From positions 9,466-73,465 of the forward strand of contig DAIQOR010000003.1 of NCBI GenBank assembly GCA_036787775.1: a stretch of 64,000 nucleotides of DNA, written 5' to 3'. The position numbers and the translations under genes were made by a program. Below, piece after piece: positions 7,336 through 10,991 of this stretch (positions within the stretch are counted from its first letter, which is position 1; each line of letters begins with the position of its first letter). Origin of the DNA: a bacterium. Its GTDB lineage: Archaea; Nanobdellota; Nanobdellia; Pacearchaeales; GW2011-AR1. Below the pieces are notes generated by a model. The model did no database searches. It was given only the letters and a program-made list of their open reading frames with translations, and was not told the origin of the DNA.

Positions 7336-7481
7336 TTAATTTTTTTGTTTTATCGTCGGGAAATTTATTTTTTCGTATTAATAACCTTAGTGCACAAACC
7401 GCAGGTGGCCTGAAAGAAATTAGTTGGAAAAAATAGGGAAATAGAAAGATTTTAAATAAGATTATTTCTTGGTTTAATTAT

Positions 7482-7556
7482 GCCTCGGTAGCTCAGCCTG
7501 GATAGAGCACTAGCCTTCTAAGCTAGGGGTCGCAGGTTCAAATCCTGTTCGGGGCA
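7482..7556 (+). tRNA. tRNA-Arg (anticodon TCT)
   Basis: Acceptor gcctcgg/tcggggc (two G-U), anticodon stem ctagc/gctag with loop cttctaa, T-arm gcagg-ttcaaat-cctgt; 75 nt. Confidence 0.75.
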
Positions 7557-7558
7557 TT

Positions 7559-7631
7559 GCGCGGGTGGCACAGCGGCTACTGCGCTTCCCTGCAGAGGAA
7601 GTTTCCGTGGGTTCGAGTCCCACCCCGCGCT
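7559..7631 (+). tRNA. tRNA-Cys (anticodon GCA)
   Basis: Acceptor gcgcggg/cccgcgc perfect, anticodon stem cttcc/ggaag with loop ctgcaga, T-arm gtggg-ttcgagt-cccac; lies 2 nt after tRNA-Arg. Confidence 0.7.
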
Positions 7632-7652
7632 TAATTTACGAGAACCCGGTTC

Positions 7653-7749
7653 GACGAGCAACTCTGAAATTTCGAATAAATGAGCAACGAAAATAAAAAG
7701 CGAATTTAAAGAATATTTCACGGGTTGGGAGCACCATCCCCGCGCTTAA
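7653..7749 (+). repeat. tRNA-associated element fragment (second-half module) plus degenerate direct repeat of the tRNA-Cys 3' end
   Basis: 7653..7734 is ~80% identical to the reverse complement of 54318..54399; 7738..7749 ccccgcgcttaa repeats 7623..7634; the preceding ~20 nt mimic the Cys T-arm. Confidence 0.7.
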
Positions 7750-7783
7750 AAAATTTTAAATAGTTCTTTTTGTAGAGAATAAT

Positions 7784-9451
7784 ATGGCTTATGTGGTCAA
7801 ACAAAATGTTAATGGTGGCGATTACTATTATCTTCGGAAAAGTGTGCGTGAGGGCGGTAAGGTGGTGAGTAAGAGCATTGCATATCTTGGGAAGACAAAA
7901 ACCGAAGCAGATAAAAAGGCAAAAGAGATAATTAAGAACATGGGTAATTTAGATGTTGCAAAAAGTGAGAGTAAGGCGGTGAAAAAGTTAGTCTGTGAAC
8001 CGACGAATATTTCTATCGAGGAGTTGGCAAATTTTTGTAAATCGAAAGGATTTGTTTTTAGAAGTTCAGATATTTATGGGGGGCTTTCAGGTTTTTGGGA
8101 TTTTGGTCCGTTGGGAGTTGAGTTGTTTAAAAATTTAAAAGATGATTGGTGGAATCATTTTGTTTATCAAAATACAAATATGGTTGGAATGGAAGCGAGC
8201 ATTATTTCTCATCCAAGGACGTGGAAGGCTTCTGGGCACATAGAAAATTTTAATGATTTGGCTGTTGTTTGTAAGAAATGTAAAAAGGGAACTAAGATTG
8301 ATGTTTCTGAAGAAGGAAAAGTTAAATGTGAATGCGGGGGCGAGTTTGAAGTTAAAGGGAAATTTAGTTTAATGTTTAAAACAAATGTTGGAGCATTGAA
8401 TTCGGAAGTTGCTTATCTCCGAGGAGAAACCGCGCAAGGAATGTTTATGAATTTTAAATTGATTCATCAAACTTCGAGAATGCAATTACCTTTTGGTGTT
8501 GCCCAAATTGGAAGATGTTTTAGAAATGAGATTGCTCCGAGGGATTTTTTATTTAGATGTAGAGAATTTCATATTGGAGAGTTTGAATTTTTTATTCATC
8601 CTGAAGAGAAAAAATGTGAATTGCTCGACGATAAACATCTTAAAGTGAAATTTAGAATTTTGGATGCAGAGACGCAGGTTGCTGGAAAAGATGGTTTGAA
8701 AGAAGTTGCTATGAAAGAACTTGTTGCAAAAAATAAACTTGATGAGTGGCATGCTTATTGGTTGGCTGAACAAATTTTTTGGTTTAGAAGTTTAGGTTTG
8801 GATAAAATAAAAATTCGAGAGCACACAAAAGAGGAATTGAGCCATTATAGTTCTGCGACTTTTGATATTGATTATGAATATCCGTTTGGAAGTAAAGAGG
8901 TTGCGGGAAATGCAAATCGGGGACAATATGATTTGATGCAACATCAAAAAGAAAGTAAACAAAGTATGGAAGTTTTTGATGAGAAAACTAAACAGAAGGT
9001 TTTACCGAGGGTGATTGAGCCAACTTTTGGAATGGAAAGAGTTTTTTTGGCTATTTTAACTAATGCTTATTGTGATGATAAATCTCGAGGAAATATTGTT
9101 TTGAGAATTCCTGCGAAGCTTGCGCCTATTAAAGTTGCAGTTTTTCCTTTGATTAAACAAAAAGAATTTGAAGATTTAGCGAAAGGAGTTTCAAAAAACT
9201 TAGGAGAAGAGTTTAATGTTTGTTATGATAAGTCTGGTTCAGTTGGTAGACGATACGCGCGTAATGATGAAATTGGAACTCCATTTTGTGTAACCATCGA
9301 CGGTGATTCAGTAAAAAATAATGATGTTACAATTAGAGATAGAGATACAACAAAACAAATTCGTGTAAAAATTTCTGATTTGAAAGAAATTTTAAGAAAA
9401 TTAATTAATTCTGAGATTGAATTTGAAAAAGCAGGAAAATTAATAAATTAA
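7784..9451 (+). CDS. glyS: glycyl-tRNA synthetase (archaeal/eukaryotic alpha2 type) with ~50-75-aa N-terminal extension
   Basis: SDIYGGLSGFWDFGPLG and class II motifs; the first ~52 aa (GGDYYYLRK..GGKV..YLGK) are not part of canonical GlyRS; 555 aa. Confidence 0.85.
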   Translation: MAYVVKQNVNGGDYYYLRKSVREGGKVVSKSIAYLGKTKTEADKKAKEIIKNMGNLDVAKSESKAVKKLVCEPTNISIEELANFCKSKGFVFRSSDIYGGLSGFWDFGPLGVELFKNLKDDWWNHFVYQNTNMVGMEASIISHPRTWKASGHIENFNDLAVVCKKCKKGTKIDVSEEGKVKCECGGEFEVKGKFSLMFKTNVGALNSEVAYLRGETAQGMFMNFKLIHQTSRMQLPFGVAQIGRCFRNEIAPRDFLFRCREFHIGEFEFFIHPEEKKCELLDDKHLKVKFRILDAETQVAGKDGLKEVAMKELVAKNKLDEWHAYWLAEQIFWFRSLGLDKIKIREHTKEELSHYSSATFDIDYEYPFGSKEVAGNANRGQYDLMQHQKESKQSMEVFDEKTKQKVLPRVIEPTFGMERVFLAILTNAYCDDKSRGNIVLRIPAKLAPIKVAVFPLIKQKEFEDLAKGVSKNLGEEFNVCYDKSGSVGRRYARNDEIGTPFCVTIDGDSVKNNDVTIRDRDTTKQIRVKISDLKEILRKLINSEIEFEKAGKLIN

Positions 9452-9577
9452 ATTCACCGACGCTGATTTTGATAGTAATTGATTAAATTTTTTTGTGAAA
9501 AATGTTTTTTATTTTTTTACCGAAGACTTTTTAAAGTTTATATTCTTATAATAAATAATTAAAAAGAGGTATCTCAC

Positions 9578-9664
9578 ATGGCTGTAAAGAAAAAAGTTGC
9601 TAAAAAAAAGGTAGTGAAGAAGAAAGTAACTAAGAAGAAAGTAGTTAAGAAGAAAAAGAAATAA
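9578..9664 (+). CDS. small lysine-rich peptide MAVKKKVAKKKVVKKKVTKKKVVKKKKK (28 aa)
   Basis: ATG preceded by agagg 7 nt upstream; the VKKK repeat is the same type as the C-terminal tail of TFE in this window; below the 60-aa ORF-track cutoff. Confidence 0.4.
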   Translation: MAVKKKVAKKKVVKKKVTKKKVVKKKKK

Positions 9665-9743
9665 ACCTTTTTATTTTTTATTTTTTATTTTTTTATAATT
9701 GGTTTTTGATTAAGTTTTTAAATTCTGTTTGTTTGGTTTATTA

Positions 9744-10091
9744 ATGGAAGATTGTGTTTTTTGTAAGATAACGAATGGAGAAATTCCTGTTAAGATTATT
9801 TATGAAAATGATAATTTTGTTTCTTTTCCCGACGCTAATCAACAAATAGATGGTCATTCTTTGGTCGTTTCTAAGAAGCATTTTGCGACGGTTTTGGATA
9901 TTCCGAATACTTTGGGAGGTGAATTGCTTGATTGTATAAAGAATACTACTTTGAAACTTATGGCTGAGTATAAGAGTGAGGGGTTTAATATTGTGAGCAA
10001 TAATTTTGAGAGTGCGGGGCAGGTGGTTGGACACGTGCATTTTCATATTTTGCCGAGGAAGAAGGGGGGGAAAGTTCCGCGGGTTTATTGA
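9744..10091 (+). CDS. HIT family (histidine triad) hydrolase
   Basis: CVFCKI N-terminus and HVHFHILPR histidine triad; start chosen at MEDCVFCKI. Confidence 0.8.
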   Translation: MEDCVFCKITNGEIPVKIIYENDNFVSFPDANQQIDGHSLVVSKKHFATVLDIPNTLGGELLDCIKNTTLKLMAEYKSEGFNIVSNNFESAGQVVGHVHFHILPRKKGGKVPRVY

Positions 10092-10461
10092 TTTTGTTTT
10101 TTATTTTTAAAATTATTGCTGAAGAAAAAATTATTCCTATAAAATCTGTTAGAACATCTGTGATTGTTGAGCTTCTCATTGGCACGAAACTTTGATGAAT
10201 CTCGTCGCTGATTGCGTAAATTAATGAAAAGAAAATTGTTACGATTAAAACTTTGTAGGAAAATTTTTGTTTGGTTTGTAATGAGTAAAATAGAAAAAAG
10301 TTGAACAGGAAAAATACTGCGAAGTGGTAGATTATTGGGATGAATGTAATTCCGCCGGATTGATTTGTCCCTGGCAGACTTGAAAAGAAAAATATTTCTA
10401 TACCAATTAAAAGTGTTAGGATGATTGAGAGGGATTTGTTTTTTGAAAGTGTTTTTATCAT
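9985..10461 (-). CDS. VanZ-like family membrane protein
   Basis: SDEIHQSFVPMRSSTITDVLTDFIG matches the VanZ-like signature; multiple TM helices; the 3' end overlaps the HIT gene convergently by 107 nt. Confidence 0.6.
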   Translation of the reverse strand: MIKTLSKNKSLSIILTLLIGIEIFFFSSLPGTNQSGGITFIPIIYHFAVFFLFNFFLFYSLQTKQKFSYKVLIVTIFFSLIYAISDEIHQSFVPMRSSTITDVLTDFIGIIFSSAIILKIKNKINKPAELSPPSSSAKYENARVQPPAPHSQNYCSQY

Positions 10462-10523
10462 TTGAGAATATTTATTTTTAGATTTAAAAGAATTGTTGTG
10501 TTTGAGTGTTTTCTCCGGTCGAG

Positions 10524-10555
10524 AAAAAATAAATGGCTCTGAAGAGAATTTAACT
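10524..10555. repeat. direct repeat copy of the tRNA-Met 3' end plus flank (32-nt exact copy of 10638..10669)
   Basis: aaaaaataaatggctctgaagagaatttaact occurs at 10524..10555 and 10638..10669. Confidence 0.85.
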
Positions 10556-10647
10556 ACAACTCAATCATTGAAAAGTTGTCATTAATATTTTATTTTGCAC
10601 TTTCCAATAATTTCGCGACCTCTGTCGGTCTCGAGTTAAAAAATAAA

Positions 10648-10719
10648 TGGCTCTGAAGAGAATTTAACTCTCGACCTCTGCCTCATGAGAGCAGCGCTCT
10701 AACACTGAGCTACAGAGCC
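10648..10719 (-). tRNA. tRNA-Met (anticodon CAT), elongator type (G1-C72)
   Basis: Reverse complement folds: acceptor ggctctg/cagagcc, anticodon stem ctgct/ggcag with loop ctcatga, T-arm gagag-ttaaatt-ctctt (unusual T-loop lacking C56); 72 nt. Confidence 0.7.
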
Positions 10720-10790
10720 GAAACTATAAAAATAAATGGGTTTAAAAGTTTTAAGGTAAGGCTTAAATATTCTTTTTTCTTGTTTTATTT

Positions 10791-10991
10791 ATGGTTGGTC
10801 AAGAAGAAGTGATAAATCAAATGGTAAATATGTTTCCGCCAGAGGTGGCTTCTCAAATTAGTTTTTGGATTCAAGCAATTGGGGGAATTTTTGTTGTTTA
10901 TCTTGTGATTCTTTTATTTAGAACTTATTCTCAATATAAAATGAGTAGAGATATAAAATTAATTAAGAAAAAGTTGAAGATTAAGGGTTAG
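10791..10991 (+). CDS. small membrane protein (one TM), hypothetical
   Basis: 66 aa; hydrophobic core IGGIFVVYLVILLF. Confidence 0.35.
   Translation: MVGQEEVINQMVNMFPPEVASQISFWIQAIGGIFVVYLVILLFRTYSQYKMSRDIKLIKKKLKIKG

Follow-up and report, generated by a model that had tools for sequence, protein, structure and literature searches.

The window analysed here is a stretch of 64,000 nucleotides (positions 9466 to 73465 of contig C6) from a 755-kb, 18-contig genome labelled G000. Behind its tRNA-Met gene lies a 114-bp unit, composed of an 82-nt insert and a 32-nt repeat, for which the best explanation is a miniature non-coding insert in a duplicated 3' part of the tRNA gene. The unit is also best explained as belonging to a class of hairpin mini-inserts located behind many tRNA genes of Woesearchaeota/Pacearchaeota-type archaea. 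Within this class of tRNA-trailing inserts, the Met insert forms a subtype of its own, confined to a single locus and constrained in structure. With modest confidence we take it for an old mini-insert, constrained in structure and kept identical to the tRNA of its own genome by recombination between the repeats. The host genome (33% GC, 91% complete) is that of a Woesearchaeota-type (DPANN) archaeon. Its tRNAs are archaeal, several of them containing introns and the initiator exhibiting an A1:U72 pair, and no tmRNA was found in the genome.

Read in the sense of the tRNA, the locus comprises the tRNA-Met gene, the trailer TTTATTTTTT, the 82-nt spacer, the second repeat copy, the flank CTCGACCGGAG and a co-oriented gene of the VanZ family. 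The features are the following, in window coordinates:

10648..10719, minus strand: tRNA-Met, anticodon CAU, most likely the elongator (ARAGORN and Rfam tRNA)
10638..10669, minus strand: repeat copy 1, 22 nt of tRNA 3' end (starting two bases before the T-loop and ending with the discriminator A73) and the 10-nt T-rich trailer TTTATTTTTT (exact 32-nt repeat)
10613..10634, minus strand: hairpin 1, a GACC/GGTC stem whose 3' arm carries a tRNA-like GAGGTCGnGA "echo" (fold; invariant in four genera)
10563..10612, minus strand: hairpin 2, in the G000 copy a stem of about 14 bp, interrupted close to its base by a tandem GA/GA internal loop and capped by about 22 nt of A/T-rich loop (fold and covariation)
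10556..10637, minus strand: the whole 82-nt non-coding insert, or Met-type element (repeat spacing, fold and four-genus alignment)
10524..10555, minus strand: repeat copy 2, a spare tRNA 3' end with trailer, preceded by no usable T-stem (exact 32-nt repeat)
10513..10523, minus strand: CTCGACCGGAG, the beginning of another, truncated insert copy that adjoins repeat copy 2 (sequence reading against insert starts)
9985..10461, minus strand: the downstream VanZ-family gene, outside the element (Pfam VanZ, E = 2e-11)

The first-pass annotation of this DNA had reported a 32-nt direct repeat of the tRNA-Met 3' end. The window contains two identical copies of this 32-mer and no more, at 10524-10555 and 10638-10669; none of 100 shuffled sequences matched it, with up to 3 mismatches allowed. 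The repeat is thus beyond chance. As described, it corresponds to a duplicated tRNA 3' end (22 nt of tRNA and 10 nt of trailer) with a spacer of 82 nt. Pattern searches identified the same element behind tRNA-Met, at the same coordinate, in four genera, represented by G000 and the genomes G010, G098 and G379. The repeats are 32 nt long in G000, 22 to 40 nt in G010, 41 nt in G098 and 23 nt in G379, and each matches the tRNA of its own genome. The carrier tRNAs differ, yet the repeat starts two bases before the T-loop in all four. The insert is always co-oriented with tRNA-Met and is found at one locus per carrier genome.

An alignment of the four inserts exhibits a mean column identity of 83%, and the 82-nt insert of G000 folds with a z-score of -4.3. 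In the consensus fold, hairpin 1 (GACC/GGTC) is invariant; hairpin 2 has 17 bp and contains a tandem GA/GA internal loop that is likewise invariant. Of the 21 base pairs of the fold, four are changed on both sides, 98.8% of the cells remain paired, and the covariation score was reached by 3 of 500 shuffles. When the pairing partners are slid along the alignment, pairing falls to 29-51%. Among the conserved pairs, several are G.U. In three of the four Met-type copies the sense strand gains about 8 kcal/mol over the antisense strand on folding, and it also folds better in 21 of the 25 copies of another insert type, module C, described below. This better pairing on the tRNA-sense strand, together with the retention of G.U pairs, points to selection for structure on that strand, whether in RNA or in single-stranded DNA.

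The "echo" of the tRNA that had been noticed in the spacer is present at the insert start in all four carrier genera, as GAGGTCG followed by nGA. It forms the 3' arm of the small GACC/GGTC hairpin, and it corresponds to a diverged copy of the variable-loop/T-stem segment of the tRNA. Read in this way, the downstream block looks like a partial 3' half of a tRNA, in the T-stem of which hairpin 2 would have been inserted. Several other identities were considered for the insert and rejected. A MITE or IS-derived miniature transposon does not fit a repeat length of 22-41 nt and one locus per genome, and the repeat listing contains no pair of terminal inverted repeats with one arm at each insert end. 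An archaeal tRNA intron does not fit either, the intact tRNA upstream being uninterrupted and the 2x2 GA loop lacking the 3-4-3 geometry of a bulge-helix-bulge. Inspection of the inserts for C/D-box RNA, K-turn, small-ORF and bulge-helix-bulge readings revealed a wrong order or spacing of boxes, no 3-nt bulge and unconserved reading frames.

The same structural evidence is what would be expected of an RNA useful to the host. According to this alternative, the 3' trailer of the pre-tRNA-Met contains a vertically inherited structured RNA, acting in processing or stability, as a regulatory module, or as a small RNA released by tRNase Z, and the duplicated tRNA end is a by-product or a part of the function. 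The compensatory changes, the conserved G.U pairs and the invariant tandem GA loop all agree with it, as do the better folding of the sense strand and the constant co-orientation with the tRNA. In three of the four genera there is no T-run between tRNA and insert; the insert is confined to one clade, and its conservation is above that expected of neutral DNA. However, a T6 terminator-like run does lie between tRNA and insert in G000, and the insert is absent from half of the genomes of its own clade (4 of 8) and from 11 relatives, checked up to 20 kb. Sister strains vary in copy number, one allele having none. No Rfam family matches the insert: a permissive scan of positions 7400-10800, covering the Cys and Met loci, against Rfam 15 returned only tRNAs and chance matches. 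We regard a host RNA as a genuine possibility, on the unlikely side, and retain the old, recombining mini-insert as the preferred reading.

A phylogenetic tree of GlyRS from 16 genomes places the four carriers in one clade of eight genomes (support 100/99), with G010 and G098 as sisters. The four other genomes of this clade lack the insert, and no copy of the last 12 nt of tRNA-Met was found up to 20 kb downstream of the gene in 11 non-carrier relatives. The carriers exhibit only about 70% GlyRS identity to G000, whereas the inserts are 73-81% identical between genomes, which indicates that the insert is constrained. Its flanks have nothing in common across the carrier genera. The simplest reading is one old origin followed by vertical descent under constraint, with clean losses. 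In another genome (G024, locus L016), the tRNA-Met gene is followed after 28 nt by a 10-nt copy of its 3' end (CTCAGAGCCA), and no hairpin insert can be recognised there; this copy could be a scar, or else a tiny insert of another kind.

Using the VanZ protein as bait, we collected alleles of the locus from sister strains. Seven contigs with an identical VanZ protein match the window, with one unit. Another allele (L074) contains two units, and a further one (L077) contains at least two, with SNPs between them, including one SNP in the distal tRNA-end copy. In the allele L079 the tRNA trailer is joined straight to the flank, giving 0 units; this is a Logan contig assembled at k=31, in which the 32-nt repeat may be collapsed. 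It retains the truncated insert start CTCGACCGGAG and is therefore not a virgin site, none of which was seen in this lineage. In G010 the locus is an array of at least two units with a 100-N scaffold gap.

Short repeats such as these can mislead assemblers, and the gap in the G010 array is a reminder of this in metagenome-assembled genomes. The possibility that the locus is an assembly artefact is nevertheless effectively refuted by its identical occurrence in at least seven independent assemblies (JGI, ENA) and by the existence of SNP variants between units. The locus could also have arisen with no distinct element at all, by simple tandem duplication on the spot or by slippage of replication at the structured tRNA gene. 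This would account for the 114-bp period and the varying copy number, and the insert start is indeed similar to the tRNA, through the GAGGTCG echo, as well as to the flank that follows the last repeat. However, about 57 nt of the spacer, corresponding to hairpin 2, have no source in the tRNA or the flank, and this hairpin is retained, with covarying pairs, in genera that have no flanking sequence in common. Nor was the hairpin-2 sequence seen as ordinary flank in any unduplicated relative. Duplication without an element is thus very unlikely.

The Met locus is not isolated in the genome. A BLAST search of all tRNAs and their flanks against G000 showed that five tRNAs have their own 3' end exactly repeated 87-219 nt further downstream: Gln-CTG (40 nt), Thr-TGT (34 nt), Met (32 nt), Arg-TCG (27 nt) and Arg-CCT (20 nt). 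A same-sense copy of the last 11 nt, with at most one mismatch and within 500 nt downstream, is present behind 10 of the 34 tRNAs, in one case only through an adjacent tRNA-Leu paralogue. Control probes from the 5' ends matched only at that adjacent tRNA-Leu pair. Within the window, the architecture that the first reading had seen at Met as a fourth tRNA is indeed present at four of the six tRNAs (Cys, Arg-TCG, Asn and Met).

Many of the spacers in G000 share either a segment of about 85 nt, termed module C, or one of about 50 nt, termed module B. Module C was also found on about 20 metagenome contigs, each time behind a tRNA (Ser, Asn, Phe, Leu, Gln, Tyr, Glu or Ile) and followed by the 3' end of that tRNA; it is occasionally inverted. 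Its motif is present in 10 of the 301 genomes of the order, and in multiple copies only in G000 and G108. A BLAST search of module C against 40 relatives returned only A/T-rich chance matches, none of them adjoining tRNAs. In G000, an inverted copy (C15 149851-149996) lies between tRNA-Phe and the RNase P RNA gene (149997-150288, minus strand); it carries a piece of the tRNA-Phe 3' end and is bracketed by repeats of about 19 nt of the RNase P RNA 3' end. The inserts are thus not restricted to tRNA genes. In the array behind tRNA-Gln-CTG (C2 62023-62420) two insert types alternate and a tRNA 3'-end copy closes each of them; the 219-nt period occurs at least twice. The 3' half of module C (for example at 7655-7735 of the window) exhibits a BRE/TATA-like sequence, GAATTTAAAGA, about 24 nt before the tRNA-end copy, the same spacing as that between TATA box and tRNA 5' end in G000. 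Through GAATTTAAAGA, module C might have a promoter role; the downstream genes carry their own TATA boxes.

The Met insert resembles the module C and module B inserts in its architecture. In each, a short GC-rich hairpin stands directly behind the tRNA; it is followed by a long, imperfect, A/T-rich hairpin, for which the sense strand is the better folder, and a copy of the 3' end of the local tRNA closes the unit. Both kinds form arrays and are patchily distributed among genomes. They differ in that module C is multi-copy, stands behind many tRNAs and the RNase P RNA gene and is sometimes inverted, whereas the Met type is found only at tRNA-Met and always co-oriented. The repeat begins before the T-loop in the Met type and in the 3' strand of the T-stem in module C. 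An nhmmer profile built from 25 copies of module C recovers the other copies of G000, most with E-values of about 1e-17 to 1e-19, and does not match the Met spacer at E<=10. Pairwise local alignments with eight other spacers gave z-scores of 0.2-2.6, and the best of them was matched by 7 of 300 shuffles. A proposed link through the motif gattgag is weak: the 7-mer is common to the Met and Asn inserts and is lacking at the other loci, including Cys. On these comparisons the Met insert has no detectable homology to module C; by architecture it is a member of the class.

The first-pass annotation had interpreted the locus as the remnant of an integrated element. On this reading, an integrase would have inserted a larger virus or plasmid in tRNA-Met, and nearly all of it would later have been deleted, leaving attL and attR 82 nt apart. 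The duplicated segment from the T-loop to the 3' end is indeed the classic footprint of an integrase. There are precedents in SNJ2, which integrates in tRNA-Met with 14-bp cores (PMC5861418), and in the islands of Thermococcaceae, 9-23 kb long and flanked by 44-bp repeats (PMC9897764). However, independent deletions would not leave one and the same structured unit of about 80 nt, at the same junction and with compensatory changes, in four genera, and this small unit occurs in tandem arrays. A search of 11 relatives revealed no larger element at tRNA-Met. IMG/VR viral contigs, scanned with the tRNA-Met 3'-end segment and two module C motifs, gave nothing or chance matches. In the 91%-complete genome no tyrosine integrase passed the cut-off: PF00589 gave only a 17-bit fragment and PF16795 nothing. 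A remnant is thus unlikely, and the old mini-insert remains our reading of the spacer.

A search for other enzymes that could mobilise the insert found no Cas1, Y1/HUH transposase or TnpB in the same genome. The only clear recombinase found in it is one large serine recombinase with Resolvase and Recombinase domains, split into two ORFs (C15 559-1350 and 1363-1764) and located between a NUDIX gene and that of ribosomal protein S9. The genome also contains two reverse-transcriptase genes (C15 172313-172948 and 263686-264291), each with a pair of repeats of 81-86 nt, about 85% identical, just upstream. Most differences within these pairs are an A in the copy adjacent to the reverse transcriptase against G, C or T in the other copy. 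Both are plainly diversity-generating retroelements with VR/TR pairs, two of them in a 0.75-Mb genome. An origin of the Met repeats by reverse transcription was rejected, both enzymes being assigned to such retroelements; moreover, the repeats carry the genomic trailer rather than CCA, which excludes copying from the mature tRNA.

The preferred explanation may be put as follows. In the ancestor of one subclade, a small hairpin-forming element would have entered tRNA-Met in its T-arm region. The tRNA gene would have stayed intact through duplication of everything from the T-loop to the 3' end, the footprint that recombination at a tRNA attachment site is expected to leave. Units would then be added and removed by frequent events between the repeats, whether unequal recombination, slippage or gene conversion. 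The same process would also keep the spare copy identical to the tRNA, as is seen in each carrier genome. Several facts stand against this explanation. Besides the lack of an integrase, Cas1, HUH transposase or TnpB in the 91%-complete genome, a unit of 107-114 bp is too small for a conventional double-stranded circular intermediate. The Met-type insert occupies a single locus in each genome, so that its mobility is only putative, and its carriers all belong to one clade, as would be expected of a resident functional element no less than of a mobile one. As for the 0-unit allele, its contig was assembled at k=31, which could collapse the 32-nt repeat, and it retains the truncated insert start. 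Finally, the insert lies inside a partial tRNA copy, which neither a plain target-site duplication nor a plain attL/attR pair predicts.

We found no description of such mini-inserts behind tRNA genes in the literature searched. Among known systems, the integrase-borne elements of tRNA genes, such as the SNJ2 pleolipovirus (PMC5861418) and the Thermococcaceae islands (PMC9897764), are similar in that a direct repeat of the 3' part of the tRNA brackets foreign DNA, the repeat begins at the T-arm and the upstream copy completes a functional tRNA. In contrast, the Met element is 82 nt long, non-coding and tandem, has no integrase in itself or in the genome, lies within a partial tRNA copy (the variable-loop/T-stem echo precedes it) and recurs as the same small unit in four genera. 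In bacterial CIME/ICE systems, integrase-less units bounded by att copies accrete in tandem behind one tRNA gene. Their att-bounded, integrase-less stacks resemble the Met arrays; however, they are kilobase units derived from known ICEs and served by integrases in trans, while the Met units measure about 0.1 kb and have no known partner. Archaeal tRNA introns and split tRNA genes, processed at bulge-helix-bulge motifs and discussed under a disruption model (PMC3293823), likewise place foreign sequence within tRNA-derived sequence, at a non-canonical T-arm position. At the Met locus, by contrast, the interrupted copy is partial, the intact gene stands upstream, and the consensus fold exhibits no bulge-helix-bulge at the junctions.

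Integrons provide a further comparison. Their attC sites are imperfect, strand-specific hairpins of about 60-140 nt located at unit boundaries, with a 7-nt core, in a system that has an IntI-type integrase. The Met locus shares with attC arrays the strand-specific hairpins beside a fixed attachment site and a structure kept more than its sequence. It differs in having no IntI-type integrase and no cassette ORFs, and in a boundary formed by a 22-41-nt tRNA end rather than by a 7-nt core. By analogy, the hairpins might be single-strand recombination sites of an undescribed archaeal system, for which the 3' ends of tRNA and RNase P RNA genes would serve as docking sites where small units, sometimes gene cassettes, are stacked; the recombinase would then be of no known family, or a nucleic-acid enzyme of the host. 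We put this forward as a speculation and consider it rather doubtful.

Inserts that duplicate a tRNA end behind 10 of 34 tRNA genes in a 0.75-Mb genome, with no enzyme visible that could place them, point to an undescribed recombination process in DPANN archaea. The Met type is old, limited to one clade, under selection for a structure on one strand, and variable in copy number within a species. Together, these traits make it a manageable system in which to ask if the inserts serve themselves, the host or both, and by what means the spare tRNA end stays identical to the gene.

The tRNA-Met gene itself deserves comment, its unusual loops having raised a suspicion of pseudogene status. The suspicion is refuted. 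ARAGORN calls tRNA-Met(CAU) at 10648-10719 on the minus strand and Rfam agrees: the gene scores 67.8 bits against RF00005 (gathering score 29), ranking fifth of the 32 tRNA matches in the genome. A genome-wide search for canonical tRNA-Met genes elsewhere produced one other CAU tRNA, the archaeal-type initiator (C15 241981-242061). The window gene is unlike this initiator, with G1:C72 in place of A1:U72, the anticodon stem CUGCU/GGCAG and no series of three G:C pairs in that stem; it is the only elongator-type CAU tRNA found. An intron-bearing tRNA at C2 10267-10440 (52 bits) reads Ile(UAU) by manual parsing, and ARAGORN reports intron-containing Ile(tat) genes on related contigs. With the intron-bearing gene so assigned, the window gene is most likely the elongator tRNA-Met of the cell.

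The T-loop TTAAATT and the D-loop AGTGTTA are as atypical as had been described. The G19:C56 pair joins the D-loop and T-loop at the elbow of tRNA and is nearly universal (PMC7912444). We compared the elbows of 15 tRNA-Met genes, that of G000 and its counterparts in 14 other genomes. All 11 genomes with A56 (T-loop TTAAATT or TTAAAAT) exhibit G18-U19, and all four with C56 exhibit G18-G19; the tRNA-Met of G098 and G379, outside this set, follow the same pattern. The elbow pair has thus been exchanged from G19:C56 to U19:A56, the double change keeping it Watson-Crick. With this clean split of A56 with U19 and C56 with G19, the swap is a compensated one, a lineage trait rather than decay. A U19:A56 pair is also seen in the tRNA-Thr(UGU) of G000 (C4 18631-18702, minus strand; D-loop AGTGTTA, T-loop TTAGAAT).

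The anticodon loop is equally unusual. An anticodon ending in U is usually followed by A37, the site of the t6A37 modification. In 14 of the 15 genomes the tRNA-Met loop is CUCAUGA, with G37 instead of A37; every other ANN-reading tRNA of G000 has A37, the usual t6A37 site being missing from the reader of AUG only. Its conservation makes G37 a trait of the lineage and not a sign of decay. Both the U19:A56 swap and the G37 of this AUG reader are relevant to the Cm56 and t6A37 modifications of these lineages. For annotation, tRNAs with non-standard elbows risk being flagged wrongly as pseudogenes, and loci of the present kind yield partial tRNA-like fragments.

Two other tRNAs of G000 exhibit a C at position 55: tRNA-Val(GAC) (C4 19989-20063, minus strand; T-loop TCCGATT) and tRNA-Gly(UCC) (C15 12252-12338, plus strand; T-loop TCCGAAT). 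On the scale of the whole window, the GC skew is strongly positive (0.4-0.5 in 2-kb windows) over most of 2-52 kb and about 0 beyond 52 kb.
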